A DNA stretch of 64,000 nucleotides from an uncultured Planctomycetales bacterium (lineage in GTDB: Bacteria > Omnitrophota > Gorgyraeia > Gygaellales > Profunditerraquicolaceae), in contig CAZIUK010000003.1 of NCBI GenBank assembly GCA_964542785.1, positions 12,946 to 76,945 on the forward strand. The letters are read 5' to 3'. Below are positions 5,982 to 55,711 of this stretch, piece after piece (positions within the stretch are counted from its first letter, which is position 1; each line of letters begins with the position of its first letter). Under the pieces are notes generated by a model. It made no database searches. It was not told the origin of the DNA and saw only the letters and a program-made list of their open reading frames with translations. The translations under genes and the position numbers were made by a program.

Positions 5982-5982
5982 G

Positions 5983-31077: not shown

Positions 31078-32609
31078 GGATTTTATTTTATTTTTTCTTA
31101 TATTTATCTTTATTTTTATTTTATCCCGGGTTAATTTTATCAGGAGAGGAAGGTACGCAGGTAAGCGCAGTTAAGGAGGTTAAGTTAGACGGGGTAAATG
31201 ATGATAGTCAAGAGAGTATTGATAAGATTTCTTTGGATCTGAAAGGGGTTGATATCAATGAGCTTTTTAAGATAATTTCTGCAAAATCCGGAATCACCAT
31301 AGTTACCTCTCCTGAAGTAAGGGGCCGGGTTTCGGTTTTTATTGATAATTTAAGTTTTGATGATGCGTTAGACGTAATCGTGACCTTACAGGATCTTGCT
31401 TACGAGAAGAAGGGGAACGTAGTAAAGGTGATGACTATGGTAGAGTATGAGCGGGCCTATGGGAAAAAATTCGGGGAGAGGAAAGAGACCCGTACTATAC
31501 GGCTTACTTATGCTAAGCCTTCTAATGTCGTCAATGCAATTACCTCCTTAAAGTCTGACCTTGGCAAGATTATTGCCGATGAATCTACCGGGACTATTAT
31601 TATAACCGATACTCCGCAATCTTTAAGTGTCATTTTAGAAGCTATTAAAGAATTAGACCGTCCTTTAGAAACTTTAGTAATTGATATTAATTATGCGCGT
31701 TTTGGGGATATAAAAAATTACCTGAATGAATTAATTACCCCCGGGGTAGGGCAGATTATCTCTGATGATAGAAGCGGTAAAGTGGTGGTTTATGATTTTC
31801 CTCAAAGGTTGGCGCGCATTAAAAACCTTTTGCAGGAATTAGACGAACAGTCCCGTCAGGTGCTTATTACTGGAGAGATTATTGAAGTAGAGATAGGCGA
31901 TAAATTTCAAAGCGGTATTGAGTGGGAAAAAATATTTAAGTCTGTGCATATGGATAATTTGGATTTAGTAGCGAAATTTCCAGTTACCCCGGCTTTGGCT
32001 AATTACGGTAAAATTAGCATAGGAACCTTGACACAGGACCATTATAATATAATAATTAATATGATTAATGAATATGGAAAGACTAAGATACTTAACCGCC
32101 CTAGGATTGTGGCGGTTAATAAAGAAGAGGCTAGGATTCTTGTCGGGACTCGCGAGGCCTATGTTACCTCTAGCCAAAGCCAAAGCGAAACTTCTGTAGT
32201 TACCGCAGAGAACATCAACTTTGTAGATGTCGGGCTTAAGCTGGTGGTTATTCCTACTATTGGCTCTGACGGTTTTATTACTATGAAAATAAAGCCTGAA
32301 ATCAGCACAGTAAAGGAGTATTTAGATACTGAGGCAGGTGGCCGTGTGCCGATAGTTAAAACTGCTGAATCGGAGACTGTGGTTAAGGTAAAAGACGGAA
32401 ATATGTTAGTTATAGCAGGGTTGATGATAGATAGTGATTTAAAAGAGGCTAAGGGGCTGCCTGATTTGTCTAAGTTGCCTATTTTAGGCCATTTATTTTC
32501 TACGAAGACAAAGGAAAAGACAAAATCAGAAATAGTTATTTTTATAACGCCAACAATTATAAGCGGCACTAGTGATTTTGGGCGCGAGGAGAGAAATGCA
32601 ATCAGGTAA
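31074..32609 (+). CDS. Secretin (GspD/PilQ family) outer-membrane channel protein, copy 1
   Basis: It has a signal peptide, secretin-N-type domains (TIRLTYAKPSNVVNAITSLKSDLGKII...TGTIIITDTPQSL) and a C-terminal secretin domain (YGKTKILNRPRIVAVNKEEARILVG ... VKDGNMLVIAGL ... LPILGHLFS). Confidence 0.8.
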   Translation: MRILFYFFLYLSLFLFYPGLILSGEEGTQVSAVKEVKLDGVNDDSQESIDKISLDLKGVDINELFKIISAKSGITIVTSPEVRGRVSVFIDNLSFDDALDVIVTLQDLAYEKKGNVVKVMTMVEYERAYGKKFGERKETRTIRLTYAKPSNVVNAITSLKSDLGKIIADESTGTIIITDTPQSLSVILEAIKELDRPLETLVIDINYARFGDIKNYLNELITPGVGQIISDDRSGKVVVYDFPQRLARIKNLLQELDEQSRQVLITGEIIEVEIGDKFQSGIEWEKIFKSVHMDNLDLVAKFPVTPALANYGKISIGTLTQDHYNIIINMINEYGKTKILNRPRIVAVNKEEARILVGTREAYVTSSQSQSETSVVTAENINFVDVGLKLVVIPTIGSDGFITMKIKPEISTVKEYLDTEAGGRVPIVKTAESETVVKVKDGNMLVIAGLMIDSDLKEAKGLPDLSKLPILGHLFSTKTKEKTKSEIVIFITPTIISGTSDFGREERNAIR

Positions 32610-32628
32610 TATTATAAATGGTATAAAA

Positions 32629-32665
32629 GGGGACAGCGACTTTTTTATCAAAAAGTCGCTGTCCC
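32629..32665. repeat. REP-like inverted pair (hairpin): GGGGACAGCGAC-ttttttatcaaaaa-GTCGCTGTCCC
   Basis: I read it directly from the sequence. It lies in the 20-bp gap between the secretin-1 stop and the likely secretin-2 start. Confidence 0.8.
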
Positions 32666-32670
32666 TATTT

Positions 32671-34611
32671 ATGAAATGGGGTATCTGCCTATTTTTATTA
32701 TTTTTGCTGATAGCGCCTTTAGGGGCTTTTATTTTTGCGCAAGGCGATATTGATTATGATGAACAGATAGATAAGATTTCTTTAGATTTAAAGAATGTTG
32801 AAATTGTAGAGCTTCTGCGCATACTTTCTCTTAAGACAAAAAAGACAATTGTCCCCAGCAAAGATATCTCAGGGCGCGTTACTATTTACCTTAATAACGT
32901 CTCTTTTAATGACGTTTTAGATATAGTCCTTTTAACTCAAGGCCTGGCTTTAAACAAAAAAGATAATATTTATTATGTTATGAGCGAAGCTGAATTTAAA
33001 AAAATTTTCGGCCGGGATTACATTGACAATAGAAAGGTAGAGACGGTAAAGCTTGCTTATGCTAAGCCCTCGGTAGTTTTTAATGCCTTAGGCCAGTTAA
33101 AATCAGATCTGGGGAAATTAGTCGTAGATGAATCAAGCGGGACGGTTATTCTTATAGATATTCCCGAAAAACTTTCTCTGATGAAAAAGATGATAAATGA
33201 AATGGACCAGCCATTGACAACCAAGGTCTACAACCTTAACTACATTAAAGCTGCTGATGCTAAAACTCAAATAACTGCCGCTATTACGCAAGGCACAGGA
33301 GAGGTTATAGTAGATGAAAGAAGCAGTAAAGCTATTGTTTCAGATTTATCTAAGAAAATGGATAAGATAGGTATGCTTGTACGCGAGATAGACGAAGAAT
33401 CGCGCCAGGTTTATGTGGAGGCTGATATTGTAGAGCTTAGTTTAAGCGATAAGTTTGAGCGCGGCATAGATTGGGAGAAGGTTTATACCTCTGCGGCTAT
33501 GGATGGATTAACCTTTGCCGGTTATTTCCCTGCTACATTAGCGCAGTTTCAAAAAATATCCGTTGGCACTTTAGCCGTGGATCACTACAAGGCCATATTA
33601 AATTTTCTTAACACTTACGGCAAGACGAATATCATCTCTCAGCCTAGGATAGCAGTTGTTAATAATGAAGAGGCAAATATTATGATTGGCGTGCGTGAGG
33701 CTTATATAACACAGACGCAGAGTCAGGCTACTTCCACTACGGTTACTTCGGAAACGGTAGAGTTTATTGATGTTGGCGTTAAGCTTAAAATATCCCCAAG
33801 GATAGGCTCTGATGGTTTTATCACTATGAAACTTAAACCTGAGGTAAGCTCTGTAAAGGAGACAGTAGAGACTTCTTTAGGCAGCCGTATTCCGATAGTC
33901 CAGACTTCTGAGTCAGAGACGACGGTAAAGGTTAAGGATGGGACGATGATTATGATTGCCGGGATGACTAAGATTGAAAATGTAGATGCGATTAAGGGTT
34001 GGCCAGTGCTTTCTAAAATTCCCTTTCTTGATATATTCTTTGGCAATCGTACCAGCGAGAAAAAGAGAACAGAGGTTATAGTCTTTTTGACTCCGAGAAT
34101 AATGCGCAGTGATGAAGGCTTAAGAGGATTAGAGATTGCTAAGATTCTCCCTAAGGAATATCTGCCTGAGAAGCTGCAGGTTAAGATAGACAGGGACCAG
34201 AAGATAGATGACGCTTTGTTTGAGACTGAGGAGAATCCGCAGGAATTACTTACGGCGCGCGATTATTATTTTAAGGGGTTAGAGTCGCAGGCATCTTTGG
34301 ATAATAAAGAGGCCATACGTTATTTTAAGAAGGCTATAGAGTTAGATAGTAAATATGCCGCGGCTTATAACAATTTAGGAATTGCTTATGAGAAGGAGTT
34401 TATGCCGGAAAAAGCAGAAGAGGCGTATCTTCAGGTTATATCTATGGACCCTTCTTTTGTCTCTGCTTATTCTAATTTAGCCTTACTTAATGAAGACCGG
34501 CTTGATTATGCCCGGGCGCTTATTTATTGGAGAAAACGAGTCCTTTACGGAGACCCTAATGATGAGTGGACTAAACAGGCTGTTCAAAGGGTTAAGGAGC
34601 TTAGCCGTTAA
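32671..34611 (+). CDS. Secretin (GspD/PilQ family), copy 2, with a C-terminal TPR-repeat extension
   Basis: It is paralogous to copy 1 (KISLDLKNVEIVELLRIL..., YGKTNIISQPRIAVVNNEEANIMIG, VKDGTMIMIAGM). C-terminal TPR repeats include AIRYFKKAIELDSKYAAAYNNLGIAYEK. The track start 32572 would translate the REP hairpin, so the more likely start is ATG 32671, which gives the signal peptide MKWGICLFLLFLLIAPLGAFIFAQG. Confidence 0.75.
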   Translation: MKWGICLFLLFLLIAPLGAFIFAQGDIDYDEQIDKISLDLKNVEIVELLRILSLKTKKTIVPSKDISGRVTIYLNNVSFNDVLDIVLLTQGLALNKKDNIYYVMSEAEFKKIFGRDYIDNRKVETVKLAYAKPSVVFNALGQLKSDLGKLVVDESSGTVILIDIPEKLSLMKKMINEMDQPLTTKVYNLNYIKAADAKTQITAAITQGTGEVIVDERSSKAIVSDLSKKMDKIGMLVREIDEESRQVYVEADIVELSLSDKFERGIDWEKVYTSAAMDGLTFAGYFPATLAQFQKISVGTLAVDHYKAILNFLNTYGKTNIISQPRIAVVNNEEANIMIGVREAYITQTQSQATSTTVTSETVEFIDVGVKLKISPRIGSDGFITMKLKPEVSSVKETVETSLGSRIPIVQTSESETTVKVKDGTMIMIAGMTKIENVDAIKGWPVLSKIPFLDIFFGNRTSEKKRTEVIVFLTPRIMRSDEGLRGLEIAKILPKEYLPEKLQVKIDRDQKIDDALFETEENPQELLTARDYYFKGLESQASLDNKEAIRYFKKAIELDSKYAAAYNNLGIAYEKEFMPEKAEEAYLQVISMDPSFVSAYSNLALLNEDRLDYARALIYWRKRVLYGDPNDEWTKQAVQRVKELSR

Positions 34612-35967: not shown

Positions 35968-36609
35968 ATGCCTATAAGAGTCGCTATAGTCGATGACCAC
36001 GATATAATCCGTTTGGGGATAAAGAGTGTCTTAGAGAAAATCACAGATTATGAAATTTGCGCTGAAGGAGAGAATGGCGAAGAAGCCTTAAAGATCGCGC
36101 AAAGCTTATCTCCGGATATTATGTTGTTAGATATAACTATGCCTAAGCTTGGAGGGCTTGATATTATTTCCAGGATAAAACGTGCCAGTCCTAAAACCCG
36201 CATTGTGATTATTTCGGTGCATAAATTAGGGGCGTATGTTTTAAAGGCCTTAAGGCAAGGAGTAAGCGGGTATCTTAATAAGGAGAATGTTGCAGAAGAA
36301 CTACTTCTAGCACTTTCAAGCGTATCTAAGGGTAAGGTTTATTTTGGTCAAGAGATATCTCAGTATCTTGCAGAGACTGTTAAAAACCCGGACCAAAAAC
36401 CCTTGTCTCACAGCCTTCTGAGTGAAAAGGAATTGGATATTCTGCGTTTGGTAGTTGAAGGGAAGACAGCAAAAGAGATAGCAGAGGTTACTTTTCTAAG
36501 CCATCGGACAGTTGAAAATTATAAGAATAGTATTATGAAAAAGCTTAATTTACACAAGACAAGTGATTTGATTAAGTACTCATTAGAGAACAAAATACTT
36601 GATATTTGA
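35968..36609 (+). CDS. NarL/LuxR-family response regulator (REC + LuxR HTH)
   Basis: The receiver reads RVAIVDDHDIIR...IMLLDITMP. The C-terminal LuxR HTH reads LSEKELDILRLVVEGKTAKEIAEVTFLSHRTVENYKNSIMKKL. Confidence 0.85.
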   Translation: MPIRVAIVDDHDIIRLGIKSVLEKITDYEICAEGENGEEALKIAQSLSPDIMLLDITMPKLGGLDIISRIKRASPKTRIVIISVHKLGAYVLKALRQGVSGYLNKENVAEELLLALSSVSKGKVYFGQEISQYLAETVKNPDQKPLSHSLLSEKELDILRLVVEGKTAKEIAEVTFLSHRTVENYKNSIMKKLNLHKTSDLIKYSLENKILDI

Positions 36610-36614
36610 TCTTA

Positions 36615-36644
36615 TAAATGTCCAATCTAAAATGTCCATTCTAA
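36615..36644 (+). repeat. Tandem 15-bp direct repeat (AAATGTCCAATCTAA / AAATGTCCATTCTAA) just downstream of the response-regulator gene
   Basis: I read it directly from the sequence. It is a candidate regulator-binding site, with a single REP copy immediately after it. Confidence 0.5.
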
Positions 36645-36656
36645 GGAGAAGGGAAA

Positions 36657-36669
36657 GGGGGACAGCGAC
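36657..36669 (+). repeat. REP-like single copy GGGGACAGCGACT
   Basis: It is an exact copy of the 12-mer core. Confidence 0.7.
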
Positions 36670-36787
36670 TATTTATAAGAGTAATATTTATAATAAAATA
36701 GAGTAGTTTTACGATTGTTATTTTAGGATAAATATAATATACTTAAGGTACAGGTTAAAAATAAAAAATGGCAGGTATAATGAAAAT

Positions 36788-36817
36788 AATAAACAATAAC
36801 AATAACAATAACAACAA
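36788..36817 (+). repeat. Hexanucleotide microsatellite (AATAAC/AACAAT) with about 4.5 units
   Basis: The sequence is aataaacaataacaataacaataacaacaa. It would encode poly-Asn if the track start 36768 were real, but it is more likely noncoding 5' leader. Confidence 0.55.
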
Positions 36818-36818
36818 A

Positions 36819-36872
36819 GGGGACAGCGACTATTACTATTTTTGCGCTATGATAAAAAAAGTCGCTGTCCCC
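36819..36872. repeat. REP-like inverted pair with a 30-nt spacer (GGGGACAGCGAC ... GTCGCTGTCCCC)
   Basis: The spacer contains the likely ATG (36849) of the downstream gene. The second arm AAAAAAGTCGCTGTCCCC is translated as KKVAVP within the signal peptide. Confidence 0.8.
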
Positions 36873-39338
36873 ATTTTGGTTGCGTGTTTTTTTGTTGTCG
36901 CAGCGCAGGCAGAGGTCTTGGTAATTAAAGCTCCCTTAACTTGGGGGCTTGATAAATCCGCAGAATACCCTTTGCCAAAAGTATTAAACGGTATTTATAC
37001 AACTGACCAGTTTGTAGCTACTGAAGGACAAGTTAGCGCTATTACGATGAATTGGGAATCAAGGGGCGCTATATCAATGGAGGTAAGCGCTGATAATGGG
37101 CTGCATTATACTCCGGTAATAAATGGCGTTCCTTTAGAGAGCGGTTTTGTAAGTGGAGATAGGATTCGCTGGCGGGCACAAGCGCTAAATGAGGATGCGC
37201 AGTTAACAGCGGTGAATCTTTCTTATTCTGATACATCCGGAGTAATAGGGGATTTTGGCCAGCCACTTTTAAGCGGATTTATGTACCGTAAAGAATTTAT
37301 AGTGCGCAATGATTCTAGAGAAGATTTATACAATTATCAGATGAAGCTAAGAATAGGGGAAAGTGAATTAGCCAAGGATGCTGATATCTGCCTTTCTAAA
37401 AAAGCAAAAGAGGATTTTAGCGATATAAGAATTAGCGCATCTGATGGTAAGCGTATTTTATCCTATTATCTTGAAAGCATAGAAGGCGAGCTTCCAGGAA
37501 AGCGCAGTGCTGTAATTTGGGTTAATATTCCTCAACTGCCAAAAGAAAAAGATTTAAAGCTTTACCTATATTATGGGAATCCGCAGGCTTTAAGTTTATC
37601 AAGCGGCGAGCAGACGTTTGATTTTTTTGATGATTTTAAAGACCCTGCCAAGAGCAATGAGAAATGGATAACCTATACAGAAAAAAACGGTACCTTGCAA
37701 TTAAAAAATGGGGAAATTAAGCTTGATGCAGCCGAAGCCATTACAAAAGATTTTCTTTTTAAAGAAGGAATTGTTGAGTATCCCGTAGAGATTGAGAGCG
37801 GTTTTGAAAACAGTTTAAACTTGCGTGTCCAGAATGGTAACTCTTATGATATTCCGCTTTGGTCGGGTTATTCTTCTTTATACAAAGGTGCAGAGCATTG
37901 CATTGCTGTAGAGGGGACAGTAAGAAATAATGACACAACTGCTCTACCTTCTTTTGCCGGAAATAGGTATTACTACCGTTTTGAATATTTTAATGGTAAT
38001 ATAGTCTTTAGCCGTTTTGATGCTTTGACTAAAGAAAAGCAGGCAGAGGCAGTCTTTAAGTCTGATTCTTTGCAAAAAATAGGCTATCTGTCTTTGCGTT
38101 CCGGAGGTGACGGGAATGGCAAGAATGTTATTCGTTTTGGCGCTATACTTGTGCGTAAAGCTGCTTTAATCAAACCGTATTTTGTTTCAGCAGGAAAAGA
38201 AGAGCAACTCTCTTTGCCTATTTTTTCCGGTACAACTCTTTCTTCTTTTGGGAGCCTTACTTTGGCCAAAGGGGCAATGAGCGGGCATTATATTTCAAGT
38301 AATATCCGAAGCGAAGACCAGATAAGGATCATGATCCCTGACTGGGATATTGATTCTCTTGGAGGAGAGTTTATCTTACATCTTTCTGCTGATGCCGGCG
38401 GGTCATATAAGAAAGGCTGCGAAAAGGGGAAGTATTATTATGCTTCAAAAAAGGATTTTGTCCCCGGGAAAAACTTAAAGATACGCATTGACCTTTTAAA
38501 AGGGGCAGGCTCCGAAGTCGAAAAAGTCGCTGTCCCCTTTGTGAAGGTGGAGCATAGGGCAGGAAAGGTAAATATTATTTCACCTAATGGCAGAGAGGTC
38601 TGGGAGGTAGGAAGCAGTAAGAAGATTAGCTGGAGTGCCTTGGATTACGATGAAACTTATCTTTTTGATTTAGCTTACTCTGTCAATGGAGGAAAGGATT
38701 ATATTGAGATTATAGCCAATAAAGATAATGATGGAGTTTATACTTGGGTTGTCCCGGATAAAATTACTAAAATCGCAAAGATAAAGATATCTGATTCTTT
38801 GGATAAAGGTATTTATGATCTTTCCGATGCTTATTTTTCTATTGTAGCTAGAGAAGATTTAAGCATTCAGGAAGAGAAAAAAGAAGAAGCAGGGGTAGTA
38901 GTGCAGGCAGCGCTAAAAGATAAAGCCAGTAAAGAGAGCAAAGATAAGAAAGATAAAGTTACTAAAGAAAGCAAAAAGAAGAAAGATAAAGTTAGCAAAG
39001 AGAACAAAAAGTTGCCGGGGAAAAATCTTTATGATCTTTTAATTAAGATAGGCGATAGCAGGTCTTCCTACAGCGAGGGGGATATTGTTATCTTAAGGCC
39101 TTCAGGTTATATTTGGAGCGTTGAAGAGAGGGAGAAGTTTTTGATTGCGCAGGTATACCTAACTGAAAAGCAGGCTGAGGAATTAACCTCTCCTTTAAAA
39201 ACAAAGGATGGAGAGATATTAAGCCGCAGGAAATATAGGATTAACTTGCTTAAGCAGGGGCTTAAAGGTTTGACAGGGTCAATTAAAAGGCCAAAGGGCT
39301 CTTTTGAGGCAGGGGTTATTGAGGATAAGGCAAATTAG
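36849..39338 (+). CDS. Large secreted protein (~830 aa) of unknown function with a K/E-rich low-complexity segment
   Basis: The likely start at 36849 gives the signal peptide MIKKVAVPILVACFFVVAAQA. The track start 36768 lies within a TATAAT-like element and runs through the microsatellite and REP. The K/E-rich segment is KDKASKESKDKKDKVTKESKKKKDKVSKENKK. Confidence 0.5.
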   Translation: MIKKVAVPILVACFFVVAAQAEVLVIKAPLTWGLDKSAEYPLPKVLNGIYTTDQFVATEGQVSAITMNWESRGAISMEVSADNGLHYTPVINGVPLESGFVSGDRIRWRAQALNEDAQLTAVNLSYSDTSGVIGDFGQPLLSGFMYRKEFIVRNDSREDLYNYQMKLRIGESELAKDADICLSKKAKEDFSDIRISASDGKRILSYYLESIEGELPGKRSAVIWVNIPQLPKEKDLKLYLYYGNPQALSLSSGEQTFDFFDDFKDPAKSNEKWITYTEKNGTLQLKNGEIKLDAAEAITKDFLFKEGIVEYPVEIESGFENSLNLRVQNGNSYDIPLWSGYSSLYKGAEHCIAVEGTVRNNDTTALPSFAGNRYYYRFEYFNGNIVFSRFDALTKEKQAEAVFKSDSLQKIGYLSLRSGGDGNGKNVIRFGAILVRKAALIKPYFVSAGKEEQLSLPIFSGTTLSSFGSLTLAKGAMSGHYISSNIRSEDQIRIMIPDWDIDSLGGEFILHLSADAGGSYKKGCEKGKYYYASKKDFVPGKNLKIRIDLLKGAGSEVEKVAVPFVKVEHRAGKVNIISPNGREVWEVGSSKKISWSALDYDETYLFDLAYSVNGGKDYIEIIANKDNDGVYTWVVPDKITKIAKIKISDSLDKGIYDLSDAYFSIVAREDLSIQEEKKEEAGVVVQAALKDKASKESKDKKDKVTKESKKKKDKVSKENKKLPGKNLYDLLIKIGDSRSSYSEGDIVILRPSGYIWSVEEREKFLIAQVYLTEKQAEELTSPLKTKDGEILSRRKYRINLLKQGLKGLTGSIKRPKGSFEAGVIEDKAN
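38526..38537 (-). repeat. REP-like single copy (GTCGCTGTCCCC) embedded inside the coding sequence
   Basis: GAAGTCGAAAAAGTCGCTGTCCCCTTT is translated as EVEKVAVPF, the same KVAVP peptide as in the signal peptide. Confidence 0.6.
38931..39011 (+). repeat. 33-bp imperfect tandem repeat (about 2.4 units) encoding the KESKDKKDKVT / KESKKKKDKVS low-complexity segment
   Basis: The units are aaagagagcaaagataagaaagataaagttact and aaagaaagcaaaaagaagaaagataaagttagc. Confidence 0.6.
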
Positions 39339-44022: not shown

Positions 44023-47000
44023 ATGAAGAAAATACTCAAGGTATTATTAATAGGCGGGTTAGCGCTCTGGGGTTATTTTGAATCCGCATCCTTGGCTTTA
44101 GGAGCTAATCTTTCTATCTCAAGCGCGTCTGATCAGACCTTTATCTCTGAGGAAGCGCCTAAGGATGCGCAGGCTATAACCATTACTGATGTATCTGGAT
44201 CCGGCATAATCGTTTCAAGCGGGTTGAGGATACTTATCCCGGATTCTTTCGGGATGCAGTGGCATGGGGCTATGCTTAGGGATGATAGCGTGACTGATAC
44301 CTCTAACGCTGATTTTAGTGTTATTGCCGCGCAGATAATCTCTGCCGGGGTAACCTTGGAAAGTTCAGATGCCGGAGCAACCGGGAGCGTGGAGGTTAAT
44401 TTTACCAGTATAAACTCTATACCTGCTGATGCAAAGATAGTGATTACATTCCCGGATAATTTTGTTTTTAATTCTAAAAGCCCAACTCTTGCTTCTTCTG
44501 CCACAATGAGCGGGGATTTTAGTGTTAGTATTACTGGGCAGGTTATAACAGTTACCCGCAACTCAACTTCGGCTTCTTCTGCTGGAAGCCACTTAATTAC
44601 CTTAACTAATATTAAGAATCCGATTAGGCCGGGAACAACTGGGGCATATTCATTGAAGATCCAGACTCTGGCGGGGTTTGATATTGATGTGAATAATGAT
44701 TTAGCCGCTTCCACGATTGTCCCTGCGGCAACTTCCCGTATAACTTTAAATTCTCCGGATGATATGACTGCAGGCGCAGCGCGCGCAGCCTACACCTTAA
44801 CCCGTTATGATGAGTACGGTAATTTAAGTACACAAGAGGAAGAAGTCTTTGACATTTCAACTACCTCTACCGGGGATAATGCTGTTTTCTACAATGATGC
44901 TACTGCAAGCGAAGCCGGGAATATCATTACCAGTATCACTATCCCCCAGGGTTCTTCTTCGGTTAACTTCTGGTATGACGATACCAAGATGGGGGCGTAT
45001 ACAATTGCGGCTATTAAATCAGATCAGCCTGAGATTACCGTTTCTGATGGTATAAATGTAAAGCATGCTGAACCGGATCATTTAAGGTTTGTTTCTGATA
45101 TACCTACTGCGGATGCCAAGCAGGTCTCTGTGCAGTTTAACCTGCCTCAGCTTGCTGCTGTTGACCGTTATGATAATATACTTACTAATGACTACGGAGC
45201 TGCTGCTTATTCCGGGAATAAGGCTATAACCTATTCCTTAAGCGGTCAAAGAGACGCTCCCGACGGAAATGGGACAGATCTTTTTTATTCCGACAATGTA
45301 GCTTCGGCGAAGGTAAATTTTACTAACGGCCTCTCAACAAATGCCCTTAGCGCTAAGTTATACCGGGCGCAGAATACGGTTATATCCCCGGCGGATAGTA
45401 ATCTTCCCAGCGAGAGTCTTCCTTCTAACGAGATTATTGTTAACCCGGCTACAGCGACAAAACTGGTCTTTAAACAGCAGCCTTCTGGCAGTGCGATAGT
45501 CAACTCTGCCTTTTTACAACAGCCGGTAGTAGCTATCCAGGATCATTACGGCAACCAGACTTTGGATATATTCCCGATAAAGCTCTATGATTCTATCCGT
45601 TCGGAATTTCCTTATGCCGATGCTCCTGGAATTTTAACTTCTGACCACGAGGATAATACATTAAATGCCGTTGCAGGCGAGGCGTCTTTTAGCGGGGTTG
45701 AATATAATGCCTCAGGTGTAATATACCTGTATGCCCAAGGATTAGGCGCAGGCAGCAATGTTAACCCTGTTTTTTCAAATGAGATAACCCTGGCTACTTC
45801 CGTCACAACCATGGTTAAGGCCGCGGATACTCCTGTAGCTGACTTTAACCTAACTCCTACCAACGATACATTGGAAAAGAAGTTTAAGGTTTTAAAGTTT
45901 AAGGTAACTGATGCCGGAGAAGATAAGACTCCTACATTGATCGATCAGATTAAAATAGCAGTATCCGGCACCGGGGGTCATGCTTCTACAGATATTGCCT
46001 GGGCAGGTTTATATGTAGGAGAAGAAAAGGTGGCGGATGCTGCTTCTATAACAGATGACTTTATTACTTTTGGGCAGGAGCCTAACAGCGATTCTACTGC
46101 AGGTATCTACAGCGTGCCTGATAGTAGCTCTGTTGAATTTACCGTGTATATCCATATGAAGCCGGATAAGTTATCCGCCCTTGACGGCCAGTCGTATATC
46201 TTTACTACTGATGAAGATAGGGTAGGGGTTGACAGAGGGGCTTCTTCGCAAATGACGGCAAGCTCAGGCAGTATAGCCGCTGTTACCGGAACTATTAAAG
46301 TTGATATGACGCATCTTGAGATTGTAACTGAAGAAGGAGCCTCAACATTAACTGTCTCTGCTGGGGTGCCGGTAGAGCTGTTGGTGCGCGCTACCGACGC
46401 TAATAAGAACATAGATAGCGATTATAATGGTAGCCATACCTTAGTCTTCTCAGGGTTAAATAGTGTTGGTACCCTTTACCCAAAGATAGAGAGTGTCCTT
46501 TTTGGCTATAATATAACTATTTCTTTTTCAGGAGGTATTTCTGCTTCTCAAGGAGTTACCCTTACTCCTTATAAGAGCGAGGAAGGTATAATCGTTGTCC
46601 AGGAATCAGGAAAGTCTTACAGTCAGCATGGATTAACTGCCACGATTGTCCCTGCGGCGACTTCCCGTATAACTTTAAATTCTCCGGATGATATGACTGC
46701 AGGCGCAGCGCGCGCAGCCTACACCTTAACCCGTTATGATGAGTACGGTAATTTAAGTACACAAGAGGAAGAAGTCTTTGACATTTCAACTACCTCTACC
46801 GGGGATAATGCTGTTTTCTACAATGATGCTACTGCAAGCGAAGCCGGGAATATCATTACCAGTATCACTATCCCCCAGGGTTCTTCTTCGGTTAACTTCT
46901 GGTATGACGATACCAAGATGGGGGCGTATACAATTGCGGCTATTAAATCAGATCAGCCTGAGATTACCGTTTCTGATGGTATAAATGTAAAGCATGCTGA

Positions 47001-50000
47001 ACCGGATCATTTAAGGTTTGTTTCTGATATACCTACTGCGGATGCCAAGCAGGTCTCTGTGCAGTTTAACCTGCCTCAGCTTGCTGCTGTTGACCGTTAT
47101 GATAATATACTTACTAATGACTACGGAGCTGCTGCTTATTCCGGGAATAAGGCTATAACCTATTCCTTAAGCGGTCAAAGAGACGCTCCCGACGGAAATG
47201 GGACAGATCTTTTTTATTCCGACAATGTAGCTTCGGCGAAGGTAAATTTTACTAACGGCCTCTCAACAAATGCCCTTAGCGCTAAGTTATACCGGGCGCA
47301 GAATACGGTTATATCCCCGGCGGATAGTAATCTTCCCAGCGAGAGTCTTCCTTCTAACGAGATTATTGTTAACCCGGCTACAGCGACAAAACTGGTCTTT
47401 AAACAGCAGCCTTCTGGCAGTGCGATAGTCAACTCTGCCTTTTTACAACAGCCGGTAGTAGCTATCCAGGATCATTACGGCAACCAGACTTTGGATATAT
47501 TCCCGATAAAGCTCTATGATTCTATCCGTTCGGAATTTCCTTATGCCGATGCTCCTGGAATTTTAACTTCTGACCACGAGGATAATACATTAAATGCCGT
47601 TGCAGGCGAGGCGTCTTTTAGCGGGGTTGAATATAATGCCTCAGGTGTAATATACCTGTATGCCCAAGGATTAGGCGCAGGCAGCAATGTTAACCCTGTT
47701 TTTTCAAATGAGATAACCCTGGCTACTTCCGTCACAACCATGGTTAAGGCCGCGGATACTCCTGTAGCTGACTTTAACCTAACTCCTACCAACGATACAT
47801 TGGAAAAGAAGTTTAAGGTTTTAAAGTTTAAGGTAACTGATGCCGGAGAAGATAAGACTCCTACATTGATCGATCAGATTAAAATAGCAGTATCCGGCAC
47901 CGGGGGTCATGCTTCTACAGATATTGCCTGGGCAGGTTTATATGTAGGAGAAGAAAAGGTGGCGGATGCTGCTTCTATAACAGATGACTTTATTACTTTT
48001 GGGCAGGAGCCTAACAGCGATTCTACTGCAGGTATCTACAGCGTGCCTGATAGTAGCTCTGTTGAATTTACCGTGTATATCCATATGAAGCCGGATAAGT
48101 TATCCGCCCTTGACGGCCAGTCGTATATCTTTACTACTGATGAAGATAGGGTAGGGGTTGACAGAGGGGCTTCTTCGCAAATGACGGCAAGCTCAGGCAG
48201 TATAGCCGCTGTTACCGGAACTATTAAAGTTGATATGACGCATCTTGAGATTGTAACTGAAGAAGGAGCCTCAACATTAACTGTCTCTGCTGGGGTGCCG
48301 GTAGAGCTGTTGGTGCGCGCTACCGACGCTAATAAGAACATAGATAGCGATTATAATGGTAGCCATACCTTAGTCTTCTCAGGGTTAAATAGTGTTGGTA
48401 CCCTTTACCCAAAGATAGAGAGTGTCCTTTTTGGCTATAATATAACTATTTCTTTTTCAGGAGGTATTTCTGCTTCTCAAGGAGTTACCCTTACTCCTTA
48501 TAAGAGCGAGGAAGGTATAATCGTTGTCCAGGAATCAGGAAAGTCTTACAGTCAGCATGGATTAACTGCCACGATTAATGCGGGTGCTGCCAGTAATATT
48601 GCCCTATTAAGCGGCAATAACCAATCTGGAAAGATAGCCGCGCCTCTACTCCAGGCTTTTGTGGTGGCAGTTACCGATGTTTATGGTAATGGTATTGGAT
48701 CTGGGACCGGGGTTGATTTTGCTATTCTTAGCCAGCCTGAAGGTGCAACAGGAGCTTTATTAAGCACTATTTCTGGTGTAACTGATGCTAATGGCCATGC
48801 CTTTACAACCCTGACTGTAGGTAGCCTTGCTGGTGATTATCAGGTGACTGCTTCTTCAGCGGGGTTATCTGGTTCACCGGTAACTTTTATCGCTACGGGT
48901 TTACTCCCTAGTGCAATTCAGCTTTTAAGCGGAGATAACCAGTCTAAACAGGTAGTTTCTGCATTAGATGACCCTCTGGTAGTTAAAATAGTTGATTCAA
49001 CAGGTATTCCTATTCCTCGTGAGAAAGTGGATTTTACTATATCTTCTTATCCTGAAGGCGCGGTTGGGCAAGCGCTCTTGTCAGGCTCAGTGGTAACTGA
49101 TGATAACGGCCAGGCACAGACCAGCTTTACTTTAGGAGATAAGGCAGGGGTTTACAAGGTAACTGTTAATTGCGGTTCGCTTACTGCGGTTGATTTTAAT
49201 TTTAATGCTACTGCCAGGGCTCCTTATCAGGTAGCCTTAAGAGGTCCGGTTTCAGTCAAGGCAGGGGAGGTCTCTACCAAATTTACCGTCTCCATAGAGG
49301 ATGAATACAATAATCCTTCTAATTTATCCCAGGCAACTGTATTTTCATTAACCAATAATCCTTCTCGGCCAAGCGGAATATTTTATTCAAATAGCGACGG
49401 GACGTTAGCAATTAATTCTCTGACTGTAGCTAAGGGTACGAATAGCGCCAGTTTTTACTATAAGGATACAATAACTGGCATGGCGAATATTACGGCAACC
49501 CGTACTAGCGGGCAGTCTTTAATCCAGGGAATATCAAGCCAGGAAGTTACGGTTATCCCTTCGGATGCCTATCGTTTTACTATTGTTGGCAATACTGATA
49601 CTATAGAGACAGGGGAAAGTAAAGTATTGACCATAACCGCTTATGATAATTTAGGCAATGTAAAGAGCGATTATACCGGGAATGTTAATGTTCTCTTCTC
49701 TGGGGCTAGTGCTTCCCCAGCTCCTTCATCAAAGAAAGCCACAGCTTCTAACCATCTAAGTCAGGATATTGAATTTGGAAAGACTACCAGCCTAAACTTT
49801 ATTAATGGTGTAGCTGTTTCAACCTTGAAGTTTTATAAAGTAGAGGATGTGAATATAAAGATAACCAGCGGTTCAATAGTTACTGCTGAAGAGGATAGTC
49901 TAAGCTTTACCGTCAGGCATGGTCAGGCAGATCACTTGAAATTCGGCGGGAATCTTCCTGCTTTGCAGGAGGCGGGGGTAGAGTTTGATTTTGAAACTAC

Positions 50001-53000
50001 GCTGCAAGCGGTTGACCTTTATGATAATATCTGCAACGGCCTTAATGGTTCTTCCGGATTCTCTGGTTCAAAGAAGGTTACCTGGAGTTTAAGCGGAGCT
50101 TCTGATGGACCTGAGGGGAATGTTATTGATGAGTTTGTCAGTCCTGTAGAGTTTAGCTTAGGGGTATCCACTACTACTTTAAGCGCAAAGCTCTACCGTG
50201 CACAGGATACCACCATTACCGCTGCTATTTCTGCTTTAATAGGGGTAAATGTTGCTTCGAATACAATTACAGTTGAGCCTGGGGCAGTAGCAAAGCTAAG
50301 GTTCTCTCAGGAGCCTGCGGCTTCTTCCATTACCAGTCAGGCTTTAGAGGTACAGCCTAAGGTTGCGGTAAGTGATCAGTATGGTAACCCTGTTTCTACT
50401 ACCTCGGCTAACGTAAGCATTGCTGCTTCAACTAGCAATGATTCATTTGTACCTGTGGTTAATGGAGTATTAAGCGCTATTGGAGGACTTACAGCATCTA
50501 CAGTTAACGGAGTAGCTTCTTTTAGCGGAGTAACCTATAATTATCCTGAGACTATTTACCTTCGCGCCACAGTCGCAGGGGTAAGCCTGGTGCCGGTATT
50601 CTCTTCAGGTATAACATTTAGTACCGCTCAGGAAACAGCTCTCTCTGTTACTACACCAGGGCCTACTGCTATTTCTTCTCTTGCCTATACTACTGCAGAC
50701 AGAGTTGGGGTGCTTAATTTTAGGGTTGTTGATGGGGGGACTGATGGTTTCTCCAGTAAGATACGCCAGGTGATTGTAAAGCGCAACACCTCTGATACTA
50801 CCGGCGGGTGGACAAATTACCTGCAGGGAGTCTATATTACCGATGGAGCAACGCAGGTGGTTGGGAGGATAGAGGATGATCAGATTATTTTTGGCTTGGG
50901 GGGAAATGATATTTATGATGTTACTAACGGCACGACTAAGAATTTTACTGTGAGCGTATTTTTGAAGAATCCGCTCCCCTTAGATTCAGATAATAAGGTT
51001 TTGGGTTTCAAGCTTGATCCGGCTACAGATATAGTATTTGGTTCACCTAGCTCTAGGCTTGTCTCTTCTTCTGTGATGAGTTCAACTCCAAAGATCTCGG
51101 TTGTGGCTACTGATTTTGCTATTTTTGGCTCTCCTACCATGAATGCCGGAGATACCCAGCCGATTACGCTTAAGGCCGTAGATATACTGGGCAATATTGA
51201 TAAGGATTATGTTGGAGAAAAAACTTTAGTTTTTAGCGGACCAAGTATAACGAGTAAAGGAAATGAGCCCATCGAGACGACCTCAAATATTCCTTTTGGT
51301 ACGGATACCCCGGTTTCTTTTACCAACGGCCAGAGCTCATCTACCGTCGGGATTAAACTCTTTAAAGCCGAAACTGCTTATGTTAAGGCAGCCGATATTT
51401 CTGCGGGGATAACTACTCCTAATCAGAAAGCCTTGATTGTTACGGTTTACGGCGGAGCTGCCACGGGTTTAAGTTGGCTTACCCAGCCGGTGGGCGTAGT
51501 TGTCGAAAATGCCCCGTGGAAAGAGTTTAGTATTTCAGTTACCGATGCTTATGGCAATACCTCATCCAGCAGTACTGAGGTAACCGTAGCTCCTTCTAAC
51601 GGCAGTATCTCTACAGGTTCGCAGGCAACAGTTACCGCTCAATCGGGAATAGCCACATTCTATAATTTTGCGGTAAATGGTCTTAATGATGAAGAGAAGA
51701 TCACTTTAAGCGCATCAGCAAGCGGGGTAGCCGGTACCGGTCCTTCCAATGAAGTGCAGGTATTTAAGGTTTATAAGGTAACGGTCTTTGTAAAAGATTA
51801 TACTAGCGCTAGTAATCTTACTGAATGCGCTTTGGATGCCACATCTAACGGAGTAGTCGTAGATGGTTTTCCAAAGACAGGCAACAGCCCGTTTACTTTT
51901 AACTTGCCCTACGGGACGTATACCTTCCGGGTCTCTAAGGAAAAATATGTTGATGAAAACACCGAAAAGACAGCTGGTGTTGCCGCGGATTACCTGGACG
52001 GAGTATATGATGCAAAGATTACCTGGTCTTTGACTGCTACAAGTTTAGTTGAGGCTACTGCTGATTATAAAGCACAGAGCGCTTTTGTTTATGATGAAAG
52101 TACTGACAAGCTTTCTATCCGCGTCTGGCTGGAGAAGCGCGGGAAGATGGTAGTTAATGATGATGTTAATATTTTAGGTAATGCGGTTGTAGATATCTAT
52201 AATGATTCTACCGGGGGATGGCTTAAGTCAATTACCTTAGAGCCTCCTGCTGCGTCTAATACTGTAAATGGAGTTTATTTTAAGGAGATACCTAATGTAG
52301 TTTCTGTTGACGATGATTTTAACCTTGTTGCAGGCAAGACCTATTTTGCCCGTGTTGTCATTAATTATGGTGGGCTTACTGGTACAGGCAGAAGTTATGA
52401 AGGAGGAGCGACCTTTAGTGTTACTATAAACGAGAATCTGCGCGCAGTTACTAATTCTATTCAGACGGTTGCTACTAATATCGCCGGGCAGACTGCGGCA
52501 ATTCAAAAGACGATAAAGGATGAGATAGAAGGCCAGATTACTAGTGTTGTTGTGCCTAAGATTACTGATGTAAAGACTGAGACATCTAAGATTCTTTCTG
52601 CCACAGGCACAGAGTCTTTGCAGGATAAGATTGCCGAGGTAAAAACACAGGTAGTCCAGGAGGTTCAGCCGCATATTAAATCCGGTATATTAAATGGAGA
52701 GACTGCGGTAAGAACTGGCTCTAAACTAGCTGTTCGTTATCGAACTGATTCTGGACTTTCTCCAACGATATCCGTATATAGCCCCAAGAACAATCTTCTT
52801 ATCTCCGACAGGGCTATGGCAGAGATAGGGATAACGGGAATCTATGAGTATAATGTAACATTTTTACCGGCTTGGGGGAGGGGATCCTTTACTATTGTTT
52901 GTTCAGAGCCGGTAAAAGGAACAGCTGATGCCTTTGTGCTTAAGGTAAGTGATTCGGATATAGAGGATATATCAAGTAGTGTCTCTGCTGTTTTAGGTAG

Positions 53001-53370
53001 CACCTCTGGCATTACCAACCTTAAGAAAGTAACCGAAACCTTAAACGCGCAGTTTAGTGATATGGATAAGGCTATTGCCCAAATCAGCAAGAATATTACT
53101 GGAAAGGTTGAAGAGGTAAAAGGGGCTGCCGTTGAACTTGCCGGCGTATTTAAGCAGCTTGAGGATATGAGTAATACCATTAAGAGCTTAGGAGGGACAG
53201 CCGGTATAAATATTGATAAGATTTACGAGGTATCTAAAGATAAGCAGGAGGATATTAGTTATATTAAGAATAAGAGCGAAGAGCTTAAGGCGGCGATGGA
53301 GCTTAACCAAAAGATGATAGAGAATGTTGCTAAGAAGCCAGTAGTTCAAACCTGGTTTGAATTCAAGTAA
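44023..53370 (+). CDS. Giant (3115-aa) secreted adhesin/S-layer-like protein built of repeated beta-sandwich modules, with a coiled-coil-like C-terminus
   Basis: It is a single uninterrupted ORF with a signal peptide (MKKILKVLLIGGLALWGYF). It contains diverged internal module repeats plus one near-identical 643-aa tandem duplication. Confidence 0.6.
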   Translation: MKKILKVLLIGGLALWGYFESASLALGANLSISSASDQTFISEEAPKDAQAITITDVSGSGIIVSSGLRILIPDSFGMQWHGAMLRDDSVTDTSNADFSVIAAQIISAGVTLESSDAGATGSVEVNFTSINSIPADAKIVITFPDNFVFNSKSPTLASSATMSGDFSVSITGQVITVTRNSTSASSAGSHLITLTNIKNPIRPGTTGAYSLKIQTLAGFDIDVNNDLAASTIVPAATSRITLNSPDDMTAGAARAAYTLTRYDEYGNLSTQEEEVFDISTTSTGDNAVFYNDATASEAGNIITSITIPQGSSSVNFWYDDTKMGAYTIAAIKSDQPEITVSDGINVKHAEPDHLRFVSDIPTADAKQVSVQFNLPQLAAVDRYDNILTNDYGAAAYSGNKAITYSLSGQRDAPDGNGTDLFYSDNVASAKVNFTNGLSTNALSAKLYRAQNTVISPADSNLPSESLPSNEIIVNPATATKLVFKQQPSGSAIVNSAFLQQPVVAIQDHYGNQTLDIFPIKLYDSIRSEFPYADAPGILTSDHEDNTLNAVAGEASFSGVEYNASGVIYLYAQGLGAGSNVNPVFSNEITLATSVTTMVKAADTPVADFNLTPTNDTLEKKFKVLKFKVTDAGEDKTPTLIDQIKIAVSGTGGHASTDIAWAGLYVGEEKVADAASITDDFITFGQEPNSDSTAGIYSVPDSSSVEFTVYIHMKPDKLSALDGQSYIFTTDEDRVGVDRGASSQMTASSGSIAAVTGTIKVDMTHLEIVTEEGASTLTVSAGVPVELLVRATDANKNIDSDYNGSHTLVFSGLNSVGTLYPKIESVLFGYNITISFSGGISASQGVTLTPYKSEEGIIVVQESGKSYSQHGLTATIVPAATSRITLNSPDDMTAGAARAAYTLTRYDEYGNLSTQEEEVFDISTTSTGDNAVFYNDATASEAGNIITSITIPQGSSSVNFWYDDTKMGAYTIAAIKSDQPEITVSDGINVKHAEPDHLRFVSDIPTADAKQVSVQFNLPQLAAVDRYDNILTNDYGAAAYSGNKAITYSLSGQRDAPDGNGTDLFYSDNVASAKVNFTNGLSTNALSAKLYRAQNTVISPADSNLPSESLPSNEIIVNPATATKLVFKQQPSGSAIVNSAFLQQPVVAIQDHYGNQTLDIFPIKLYDSIRSEFPYADAPGILTSDHEDNTLNAVAGEASFSGVEYNASGVIYLYAQGLGAGSNVNPVFSNEITLATSVTTMVKAADTPVADFNLTPTNDTLEKKFKVLKFKVTDAGEDKTPTLIDQIKIAVSGTGGHASTDIAWAGLYVGEEKVADAASITDDFITFGQEPNSDSTAGIYSVPDSSSVEFTVYIHMKPDKLSALDGQSYIFTTDEDRVGVDRGASSQMTASSGSIAAVTGTIKVDMTHLEIVTEEGASTLTVSAGVPVELLVRATDANKNIDSDYNGSHTLVFSGLNSVGTLYPKIESVLFGYNITISFSGGISASQGVTLTPYKSEEGIIVVQESGKSYSQHGLTATINAGAASNIALLSGNNQSGKIAAPLLQAFVVAVTDVYGNGIGSGTGVDFAILSQPEGATGALLSTISGVTDANGHAFTTLTVGSLAGDYQVTASSAGLSGSPVTFIATGLLPSAIQLLSGDNQSKQVVSALDDPLVVKIVDSTGIPIPREKVDFTISSYPEGAVGQALLSGSVVTDDNGQAQTSFTLGDKAGVYKVTVNCGSLTAVDFNFNATARAPYQVALRGPVSVKAGEVSTKFTVSIEDEYNNPSNLSQATVFSLTNNPSRPSGIFYSNSDGTLAINSLTVAKGTNSASFYYKDTITGMANITATRTSGQSLIQGISSQEVTVIPSDAYRFTIVGNTDTIETGESKVLTITAYDNLGNVKSDYTGNVNVLFSGASASPAPSSKKATASNHLSQDIEFGKTTSLNFINGVAVSTLKFYKVEDVNIKITSGSIVTAEEDSLSFTVRHGQADHLKFGGNLPALQEAGVEFDFETTLQAVDLYDNICNGLNGSSGFSGSKKVTWSLSGASDGPEGNVIDEFVSPVEFSLGVSTTTLSAKLYRAQDTTITAAISALIGVNVASNTITVEPGAVAKLRFSQEPAASSITSQALEVQPKVAVSDQYGNPVSTTSANVSIAASTSNDSFVPVVNGVLSAIGGLTASTVNGVASFSGVTYNYPETIYLRATVAGVSLVPVFSSGITFSTAQETALSVTTPGPTAISSLAYTTADRVGVLNFRVVDGGTDGFSSKIRQVIVKRNTSDTTGGWTNYLQGVYITDGATQVVGRIEDDQIIFGLGGNDIYDVTNGTTKNFTVSVFLKNPLPLDSDNKVLGFKLDPATDIVFGSPSSRLVSSSVMSSTPKISVVATDFAIFGSPTMNAGDTQPITLKAVDILGNIDKDYVGEKTLVFSGPSITSKGNEPIETTSNIPFGTDTPVSFTNGQSSSTVGIKLFKAETAYVKAADISAGITTPNQKALIVTVYGGAATGLSWLTQPVGVVVENAPWKEFSISVTDAYGNTSSSSTEVTVAPSNGSISTGSQATVTAQSGIATFYNFAVNGLNDEEKITLSASASGVAGTGPSNEVQVFKVYKVTVFVKDYTSASNLTECALDATSNGVVVDGFPKTGNSPFTFNLPYGTYTFRVSKEKYVDENTEKTAGVAADYLDGVYDAKITWSLTATSLVEATADYKAQSAFVYDESTDKLSIRVWLEKRGKMVVNDDVNILGNAVVDIYNDSTGGWLKSITLEPPAASNTVNGVYFKEIPNVVSVDDDFNLVAGKTYFARVVINYGGLTGTGRSYEGGATFSVTINENLRAVTNSIQTVATNIAGQTAAIQKTIKDEIEGQITSVVVPKITDVKTETSKILSATGTESLQDKIAEVKTQVVQEVQPHIKSGILNGETAVRTGSKLAVRYRTDSGLSPTISVYSPKNNLLISDRAMAEIGITGIYEYNVTFLPAWGRGSFTIVCSEPVKGTADAFVLKVSDSDIEDISSSVSAVLGSTSGITNLKKVTETLNAQFSDMDKAIAQISKNITGKVEEVKGAAVELAGVFKQLEDMSNTIKSLGGTAGINIDKIYEVSKDKQEDISYIKNKSEELKAAMELNQKMIENVAKKPVVQTWFEFK
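44711..48568 (+). repeat. Near-perfect tandem duplication, 2 x 1929 bp (643 codons, in frame), inside the giant gene
   Basis: Copy 1 is 44711-46639 and copy 2 is 46640-48568. The 8-bp junction homology ccacgatt repeats at 48569-48576. The only difference I noticed is a vs g at 44729/46658, which is synonymous. Shadow ORFs at 1929-bp offsets confirm the identity. Confidence 0.85.
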
Positions 53371-53390: not shown

Positions 53391-53449
53391 GGGGACAGCG
53401 ACTTTTTTGATAAAAAGTCGCTGTCCCCCTAGAAAAAGTCGCTGTCCCC
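53391..53449. repeat. REP-like triplet: GGGGACAGCGAC-tttttgataaaaa-GTCGCTGTCCCC-ctagaaaaa-GTCGCTGTCCCC
   Basis: It starts 20 bp after the giant-gene stop. The first pair forms a hairpin and probably acts as a terminator or mRNA stabiliser. Confidence 0.8.
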
Positions 53450-55075: not shown

Positions 55076-55087
55076 GGGGACAGCGAC
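55076..55087 (+). repeat. REP-like single copy GGGGACAGCGAC (left flank of the RayT remnant)
   Basis: It is an exact 12-mer in forward orientation. Its partner at 55700 is in reverse orientation. Confidence 0.75.
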
Positions 55088-55699: not shown

Positions 55700-55711
55700 G
55701 TCGCTGTCCCC
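55700..55711 (-). repeat. REP-like single copy GTCGCTGTCCCC (right flank of the RayT remnant)
   Basis: It is an exact 12-mer in reverse orientation, preceded by A8. It lies 24 bp upstream of the GGDEF gene. Confidence 0.75.

Follow-up and report, generated by a model that had tools for sequence, protein, structure and literature searches.

The window analysed here, 64,000 nt of contig CAZIUK010000003.1 from an uncultured bacterium of the Omnitrophota (G+C content 39.7%), holds a tightly packed pilus/secretion gene cluster in which a short repeat lies at the 5' end of each of two exported-protein genes, one with a DUF2341 domain and the other the downstream member (secretin 2) of a pair of secretins. 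We propose that the repeat is an element like the repetitive extragenic palindromes (REPs) and their paired form, the REPINs, mobilised now or formerly by a tyrosine transposase of the REP-associated family (RAYT). In the DUF2341 gene translation most likely starts at the ATG at 36780, upstream of the repeat, so that the hairpin formed by two repeat arms would be translated (GDSD…KKVAVP) within a long signal-peptide n-region, and the ATG at 36849, inside the hairpin, is probably not the main start. To this explanation as a whole, including the nature of the repeat and its tolerance as a passenger, we assign a probability of about 0.6. The original prediction, made from the letters of the window alone, had offered tolerated REP insertion in signal-peptide coding sequence as one of its readings, and this is the one that the orthologous loci favour.

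The repeat family was delimited by searching for the core GGGGACAGCGAC with up to 2 mismatches. This gave 18 matches in the 64-kb window, 14 of them with 0-1 mismatch; shuffled sequence gave 1.5 +/- 1.2 matches and none of 100 shuffles reached 18. The full arm approximates GGGGACAGCGAC(T)5, whose reverse complement is (A)5GTCGCTGTCCCC; it is 17-24 nt long, with a core GGGACAGCGAC between A/T-rich flanks. The sequence at one arm end is (A/T/G)GGGG or ATAGGG and at the other GAC(T/C)(A/T)TTT, with no consistent GTAG or CGTC tag, and the arms are free of stop codons in all six frames. Single arms are not self-complementary (about 0 kcal/mol, no better than shuffles), the palindrome being a property of the arm pair only. 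The usual arrangement is an inverted pair that forms a hairpin of 13-25 bp; such pairs fold at -28 to -38 kcal/mol as RNA (z from -4 to -12) and at -18 to -23 kcal/mol as single-stranded DNA. The window contains pairs, triplets and singles (2 pairs and 2 triplets of orientation +,-,-). Nine of the 14 closest matches are clearly intergenic and three lie in the DUF2341 open reading frame (ORF), while 2/14 fall in the secretin 2 ORF if this starts at 32596; the loops of the intergenic pairs measure 14-15 nt. The core is also present in 13 loci fetched from other Omnitrophota (loci are designated below by our own handles, L004 and so on). Independent metagenome assemblies (L001, L003, L033 and L034) carry the same sequence with zero differences, and this identity in four assemblies shows that the repeats are not an assembly artefact.

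The repeat is linked to a transposase. On the + strand at 55215-55650 there is a RAYT gene remnant, internally deleted and frameshifted, with one arm to its left (55076-55087, + strand) and an inverted one to its right (55700-55711, - strand). Its N-terminal piece of 23 codons forms a short ORF at 55215-55286 (MGRIARIVGVGLPHHITQR...), after which come the deletion and the frameshift; the C-terminal piece, 117 codons in an ORF at 55297-55650, opens ...NQRGHLWQGRFYSC and contains ...GHLWQGRFYSC...ERNPVRAGL.... A Pfam search of the remnant returned no match, and it was the NCBIfam model NF047646 that recognised it (E = 1e-8, model positions 96-146, the C-terminal third only), with 35 bits against a curated cut-off of 80, a shortfall due to the truncation. 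An intact homologue of 205 aa (PF01797), 78% identical to the remnant, occupies the syntenic position in L029, upstream of the same response regulator-GGDEF gene and ATP synthase genes, and is bracketed by the arms AATAGGGACAGCGACCATTTT and ATGGTCGCTGTCCCTATT; the second flanking arm (L029 793-813) supplies the last seven codons of the transposase (EMVAVPI, then stop). Another intact RAYT, in the unrelated context of L031, shows the same inverted-arm flanking. Since inverted arms flank the remnant and the intact genes alike, the system is of the REP/RAYT type, which bears out the name first given to the repeat. The C-terminus of the L029 transposase is, as a separate observation, the same MVAVPI peptide that opens the signal-peptide hydrophobic core elsewhere.

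The gene for the DUF2341-domain exported protein occupies 36780-39338 on the + strand (Pfam DUF2341), gene callers placing its start at 36768. The protein has 81 homologues, the best 55-59% identical, and the named ones all come from metagenome bins of Candidatus Omnitrophota. Directly upstream of its leader lies a NarL/LuxR-type response regulator gene (35968-36609, + strand; Pfam Response_reg and GerE, the latter the LuxR-type helix-turn-helix domain, as predicted), itself preceded by a HisKA_3 histidine kinase gene, and the gene order at the locus is the same in L004, L006, L026, L027 and L028. We aligned the leader, taken as the interval between the stop codon of the response-regulator gene and the 5' end of the DUF2341 gene, in the window and these five loci. 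A metagenome scan with the conserved promoter block described below yielded one extra locus, L035, a close relative of L028, which was added later, and a genome scan with the DUF2341 protein alignment yielded 18 loci, the window's own genome not being among them. Divergence was calibrated on the 4-fold degenerate sites of the response-regulator gene, at which the window is 57% identical to L004 and 30-36% identical to the other four, that is, saturated.

Arm 1 of the leader hairpin (AAAGGGGACAGCGACT, 36816-36831, + strand, core 36819-36830) reads in frame as K-G-D-S-D. It is followed by a loop of 28 nt (36832-36859), which holds the ATG at 36849-36851, and by arm 2 (AGTCGCTGTCCCC, 36860-36872, + strand, core 36861-36872), which together with an A-run encodes KKVAVP at the boundary between the n-region and the hydrophobic (h) core of the signal peptide. 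The pair folds at -27.9 kcal/mol (z = -6.2). That a REP pair straddles the ATG at 36849, with its second arm coding for KKVAVP inside the signal peptide, had been predicted and is confirmed. Arm 2 is found in 7/7 orthologous leaders, always in frame as K(K/M)VA(V/L)P at the n/h boundary; it is duplicated in L004. Arm 1 is single in the window, L006 and L026, duplicated in L027 and absent in L028 and L035, so that among these leaders absence of the REP, suggested beforehand as a check, is found for the first arm and not for the second. Where arm 1 is present in the orthologues its frame is the same, giving (G/R)DSD in L004, L006 and L027 and RESD in L026.

The reading frame is kept through considerable length variation. 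The conserved ATG and arm 2 are 81, 75, 60, 72, 75 and 36 nt apart, all of these being multiples of three; at least five indels, each a multiple of three, are needed to account for them, and no stop codon has arisen in this AT-rich leader. Loop length also varies among the orthologues and is a multiple of three in all. Because the intergenic loops measure 14-15 nt, a multiple-of-three loop is not intrinsic to the element.

The upstream start itself is conserved. An SD-like (Shine-Dalgarno-like) GGCAGGT and the ATG at 36780 (MKIIN...; 36770-36782, + strand) align with GAAGGTGGCC-ATG in L006, GGCAGGCATG-ATG in L004, GAAGGCGGCT-ATG in L026, GAGGGTGCC-ATG in L027 and GAAGGTGCCATA-ATG in L028; in every aligned locus an SD-like (A/C)AGG, 4-5 nt and an ATG stand 3' of the promoter-like block, the ATG about 30 nt downstream of it. 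The gene callers' choice, ATG 36768, is not kept in the L006 group. SD-like elements precede many genes of the window, and there is none before ATG 36849. In L006, L026 and L027 arm 2 contains the sole downstream ATG, which is enclosed in a perfect stem of 24-25 bp (about -38 kcal/mol), and a signal peptide begun there, MVAVPIF..., would be without a charged n-region. L028 and L035, which have lost arm 1, encode from the conserved ATG an ordinary 28-residue signal peptide, MKKQTILTFVKMVAVPIL...AQA, i.e. MKKQTILTFVKMVAVPILFLLFST(A/V)AQA. In the distant locus L010 a good SD (AAGAGG, then 6 nt) precedes an ATG upstream of that locus's own repeats, and homologues without REPs open with similar MKK-rich n-regions. 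The upstream start is therefore favoured, among other things by the conservation of the SD-like element with its ATG, the maintained frame, the burial of the downstream ATG and the normal peptides of L028 and L035. From this comparison we infer that ATG 36780 is probably used, rather than ATG 36849, which the original prediction had considered the most plausible start. Its wider suggestion that REP insertion had caused starts to be called wrongly receives little support, as the orthologues back upstream starts, though these are likely to be 36780 rather than 36768 and, for secretin 2, 32596 rather than 32572.

Translation from ATG 36780 would give a 44-residue signal peptide, MKIINNNNNNNNKGDSDYYYFCAMIKKVAVPILVACFFVVAAQA (36780-36911, + strand), with predicted cleavage before EV. 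By inspection its n-region has a net charge of +2, with KK beside the hydrophobic core VAVPILVACFFVVA, which is followed by AQA|EV, a site conserved among DUF2341 homologues. A protein-database search with the 40-residue REP-encoded N-terminus returned no candidates. In the mechanism that we propose, transcription would begin just downstream of the promoter-like block at 36701-36745 and ribosomes would initiate at ATG 36780 and read the whole hairpin in frame. Arm 1 would contribute GDSD, variation in the loop would be tolerated, and arm 2, together with the A-run and the T-rich sequence 3' of it, would contribute KK-VAVP-IL, keeping positive charges beside the hydrophobic core. As the hairpin begins 36 nt past the start codon, outside the initiation footprint, a block to initiation would not be expected, and occlusion of the ribosome-binding site, which had been suggested, is probably not what the hairpin does. 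The signal peptide would then be cleaved off and the mature protein left untouched, which is why the insertion could be tolerated as a passenger.

A similar situation is found at the junction of the two secretin genes. The stop codon of secretin 1 lies at 32609 and, as predicted, a REP pair is found between the secretins, downstream of this stop (32626-32666, + strand; cores 32629-32640 and 32655-32666; -31.7 kcal/mol); in the frame of secretin 2 it reads GDSDFFIKKSLSL. The pair is syntenic in L004, L006, L027, L009 and L010. A GAGGAG, 4 nt and the ATG at 32596 (32586-32598, + strand), overlapping the last codons of secretin 1, form a candidate coupled start of secretin 2. In six lineages the secretin 2 frame has no stop codon across the pair or upstream of it as far as an ATG overlapping the 3' end of secretin 1, and in L009 and L010 this ATG is part of an ATGA start/stop overlap. 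Between the repeat and the hydrophobic core, L009 offers no ATG, GTG or TTG in frame, from which it follows that the repeat would be translated there; this locus appears to make the strongest indirect case for translated repeat residues. In the window both ATG 32596 and the post-REP ATG 32671 are candidate starts, and GTG 32572 is an unlikely one. Arm 2 of L006 and L027 encodes KWSLSL at the point where the hydrophobic core begins. The window's MKWGICLF (from ATG 32671; 32671-32700) aligns with the REP-encoded RKWSLSLL of L006 (3238-3262) and appears to be an earlier arm that has since decayed, a more recent REP pair having inserted immediately upstream of it.

The position in the DUF2341 signal peptide is not reserved for this repeat. 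In L009 the corresponding slot (5900-6040) is filled by an unrelated palindrome, GTCATTGCGA…TCGCAATGAC; in L010 (5664-5746 and 5892-5997) by the unrelated GGAAACAGTTTCC family, whose copies there fill the tandem-site/promoter slot as well; and in L011 (120-360) by another unrelated palindrome, CCCCTCCC…GGGAGGGG, an insert of about 85 codons. The ORF stays open through the unrelated palindromes of all three loci, and the gene is likewise intact despite the loss of arm 1 (L028, L035) or the duplication of an arm (L004, L027). On the simplest reading these slots are the few slack positions of a compact operon, the n-region accepting nearly any stop-free insert that keeps lysines by the core, and insertion would be neutral.

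Several points weigh against translation of the hairpin from an upstream start as a mere passenger. In the window and L004 an ATG is exposed in the loop, and MIKKVAVPILVACFFVVAAQA read from there is a textbook 21-residue signal peptide; initiation at ATG 36849 alone, or dual initiation, may occur in the window lineage. ATG 36780 has a weak SD-like element (GCAGG) in front of it, at a distance of only 4 nt, and it would be unusual for a signal peptide to have 44 residues, two acidic ones among them, and to be encoded with a hairpin of -28 kcal/mol in its codons 13-31. Kinship among the orthologues makes the indels less than fully independent events, and the gene-caller protein sets favour long ORFs. 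At the secretin junction, the bases of ATG 32596 and its SD double as codons for the conserved C-terminus of secretin 1; given that coding constraint, their conservation was set aside as independent evidence for a start. Finally, the hairpin persists across saturated synonymous divergence with four pairs changed on both sides, and could thus be selected rather than merely tolerated.

These points feed two alternatives. If ATG 36849 were the true start, arm 1 and the loop would be untranslated, the hairpin would present or hide the start codon, and the upstream extension of the ORF would be a gene-caller artefact. The canonical 21-residue signal peptide is close in length to those of many REP-less homologues, the ATG sits in the hairpin loop in both the window and L004, the arms, being stop-free in all six frames, permit spurious ORF extension, and most REPs at the 5' ends of ORFs were judged non-coding in an earlier survey (Di Nocera et al. 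2013, PMC3733652). Yet ATG 36849 is without an SD, its counterpart in L006, L026 and L027 is buried in a perfect stem and would yield a peptide without a charged n-region, frame and openness have been kept over at least five indels downstream of a conserved SD-like element and ATG, and L028 and L035 need the upstream ATG for a normal signal peptide. We consider this alternative unlikely for these reasons. The other alternative grants translation and supposes that the hairpin has in addition been co-opted, as an mRNA stabiliser, as an elongation pause aiding targeting, as a switch with the lone arm at 36655-36674, or as a protein-binding site shared with that arm. Two syntenic sites retain such a hairpin in lineages with saturated 4-fold sites, and the arm differences among genomes are paired (G-C to A-T, T-A to C-G, and C-G to G-C in L026, with one G.U in L004, a change neutral only on the sense strand): in five orthologous hairpins 92.9% of cells are paired. 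The lone arm, itself conserved, is 88% complementary to arm 2, and in L010 a single repeat family again fills both the promoter-upstream and the n-region slots. Each genome's arm variant, however, recurs at its own secretin junction and around its own RAYT; as the arms follow the REP consensus of their own genome, the covariation is explained by repeat-family evolution and not necessarily by local selection, and we rejected it as proof of selection at the RNA level. Also against co-option, the lone arm, being 5' of the promoter-like block, probably falls outside the transcript, arm 1 is missing in L028 and L035 with the gene intact, unrelated repeats replace the hairpin elsewhere, an Rfam scan of the whole window gave no matches, and no terminator-like site was found in 36400-37000. 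Co-option on top of translation thus seems to us distinctly doubtful.

A more speculative possibility, which we hold to be improbable, is that signal peptides are built or repaired with REP arms, the n-region being a preferred, perhaps selected, landing site and the translated hairpin tuning elongation or mRNA stability. It is conceivable since the A-run, the arm and the T-rich flank encode KK-VAVP-IL or K-(W)SLSL-L, a ready-made n/h boundary; if true, it would explain why at least four unrelated families occur in the same codons and why the hairpin has outlasted saturated divergence. As for the matches having arisen by chance, from low-complexity sequence or from misassembly, the AT-rich and repeat-rich leader might invite the suspicion, but the shuffles, the four identical assemblies and the syntenic copies in other genomes leave it practically no room.

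Translated insertion in a tolerant n-region, the reading that we prefer, can be set beside known systems. With the REP/REPIN-RAYT systems (the REP/BIME, or bacterial interspersed mosaic elements, of E. coli; the REPINs of Pseudomonas, Bertels & Rainey 2011, PMC3116915; Nunvar et al.) the Omnitrophota repeat shares a short, high-copy unit, which in the 64 kb covered appears to lie mostly at gene junctions, inverted hairpin pairs, persistence at syntenic sites of related genomes, and a Y1/HUH RAYT-family transposase (NF047646/PF01797) flanked by inverted copies. It differs in that the single arm is non-palindromic, the transposase is flanked by single arms in the manner of terminal inverted repeats, and several copies lie in frame in coding sequence; it also lacks the GTAG/CGTC tag and does not fit the GTAG/CGTC superfamilies of Di Nocera et al. 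Those authors (PMC3733652) described REPs and REP dimers inside ORFs, encoding 20-30 residues and in excess at N-termini, with most 5'-terminal cases judged non-coding, and also tyrosine transposases flanked by inverted repeats that are not hairpin REPs. In contrast to their cases, comparison here favours translation, and the position is a cleavable signal-peptide n-region used by several unrelated families.

Hairpins of REPs between cistrons in E. coli, for example at malE-malF, are untranslated. The secretin 1/secretin 2 junction resembles them in having a stable hairpin between co-directional genes of an operon, and differs in that the downstream ORF, secretin 2, appears to read through it; by analogy, the junction hairpin could protect the upstream mRNA or lower downstream expression. 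The Rickettsia palindromic elements (RPEs; Ogata et al. 2000, as cited in PMC3733652), the classic in-frame case, are selfish palindromes in frame in functional genes. Like them, the Omnitrophota element is in frame and stop-free, with the ORF intact in six DUF2341 and six secretin 2 leaders; RPEs, in contrast, are about 100-150 bp, are not known to have a RAYT and occupy loops on the surface of mature proteins.

The closest parallel to RPEs in the window is an arm within the mature part of the DUF2341 protein. This arm, AAAAAGTCGCTGTCCCC (38520-38537, + strand, core 38526-38537), is read in the frame of the gene as EKVAVP, in agreement with the KVAVP predicted at 38526. It is specific to the window lineage, and a degenerate partner, GGGGCAGGC, lies just upstream. 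The window's EKVAVPFVKVEHRAG replaces SSGLSAISLDYRPG of the orthologues at the same length, a rewritten patch. By analogy with RPEs it may be regarded as a palindrome settled in a permissive loop of a mature protein. The same variable loop in L006 (about 9110-9140) contains a different perfect palindrome, AGCGGACGTTTAAACGTCCGCT, also in frame and containing CGTC.

Intragenic REPs, their excess at N-termini and tyrosine transposases flanked by inverted repeats were thus known already (PMC3733652). What is new is the host phylum, the comparative evidence that N-terminal copies are translated, their location in the cleavable n-region of two exported-protein genes, and the reuse of that slot by unrelated families. 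In the literature searched, neither REPs in signal peptides nor REPs in Omnitrophota had been reported, so that a REP/RAYT-type system is here documented in a phylum for which that literature describes none. For annotation, repeats should not be trimmed from gene starts in Omnitrophota and similar repeat-rich uncultivated lineages, as N-terminal peptides derived from them, such as GDSD…KVAVP, are probably real precursor sequence. For the biology of selfish DNA, a cleaved n-region would be a safe harbour for palindromes in compact operons, one that unrelated families have used repeatedly. Finally, the comparison separates the mobile DNA of the leader from its conserved regulatory DNA, and so brings out a candidate regulator site, the 14-bp tandem AATGTCCAWT, for a pilus-associated DUF2341 surface protein.

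The rest of the leader is ordinary regulatory DNA: a tandem site, a lone arm in slack sequence and an in-frame microsatellite. The tandem direct repeat on the + strand, found with Tandem Repeats Finder, is AAATGTCCAWTSTA x2 with a period of 14 bp (AAATGTCCAATCTA x2.1) at 36616-36644; a repeat had been predicted here with a unit of 15 bp at 36615-36644, correct as to its presence. Its core is invariant in the six aligned loci, where the site is 84-94% identical, the AATGTCCAWT pair is found even in the distant L009 (5766-5789) and L010 (5634-5657), and there is no other occurrence within the window. It is probably a transcription-factor binding site, and the adjacent NarL-type regulator is likely to bind it, which would make it the operator of the HisKA_3 kinase/regulator pair. 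The lone arm, AAGGGGGACAGCGACTATTT (36655-36674, + strand, core 36658-36669), lies between the tandem site and the promoter-like block, upstream of 36849 as predicted; it occupies the same place in L004, L006, L027, L028 and L035, is degenerate in L026, and has its slot filled by a different repeat family in L010. The promoter-like block, GAGTAGTTTTACGATTGTTATTTTAGGATAAATATAATATACT (36701-36745, + strand), came from a consensus scan and the alignment; it includes TTGTTA-17-TATACT at 36715-36743 as candidate hexamers. It is nearly invariant in the six loci (76-94% identical), and its 5' part is kept in L009 and L010. Both the tandem site and the promoter-like block have been kept over a divergence that saturates 4-fold sites, which marks them as conserved regulatory DNA. 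An attenuator in which the lone arm (36658) would pair with arm 2 was considered and dropped, as the promoter-like block is downstream of the lone arm and there is no terminator; with the sole alternative partner so placed, a structured RNA leader (riboswitch or attenuator) is not supported.

The microsatellite, expected as (AATAAC)n, is indeed present, with unit and span corrected to (AACAAT)3.8 at 36792-36814 (+ strand); its in-frame codons add poly-Asn to the n-region of the signal peptide. It is confined to the window lineage, L004 having AACAAAAACAAAGGAAATAAA at this position, and its copy number is the same in L001 and L003, two independent assemblies that cover the region. As the unit is 6 nt, a change in copy number cannot shift the frame. 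Further upstream, the histidine kinase ORF, counted from its first ATG (34490), shares about 120 nt with the 3' end of secretin 2 (34490-34611); gene callers give the orthologous kinases 468 residues, against 491 in the window, and the kinase probably starts downstream of 34490.

Elsewhere in the window, core matches reveal two intergenic triplets (+,-,-), one at 53391-53449, after a gene for a protein of 3115 aa, and one at 59281-59338, between the ATP synthase alpha and gamma genes. REP triplets of this orientation are frequent, with examples in L004 at 5771-5827 and 10038-10113, and L027 has one of orientation (+,+,-). Triplets suggest local duplication of arms, possibly through slippage or the action of the transposase. 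Two identical core matches with 2 mismatches, GGCTACAGCGAC, at 45447-45458 and 47376-47387, lie 1929 bp apart inside the 3115-aa gene (44023-53370) and probably reflect a large internal repeat of this giant protein rather than REP arms.

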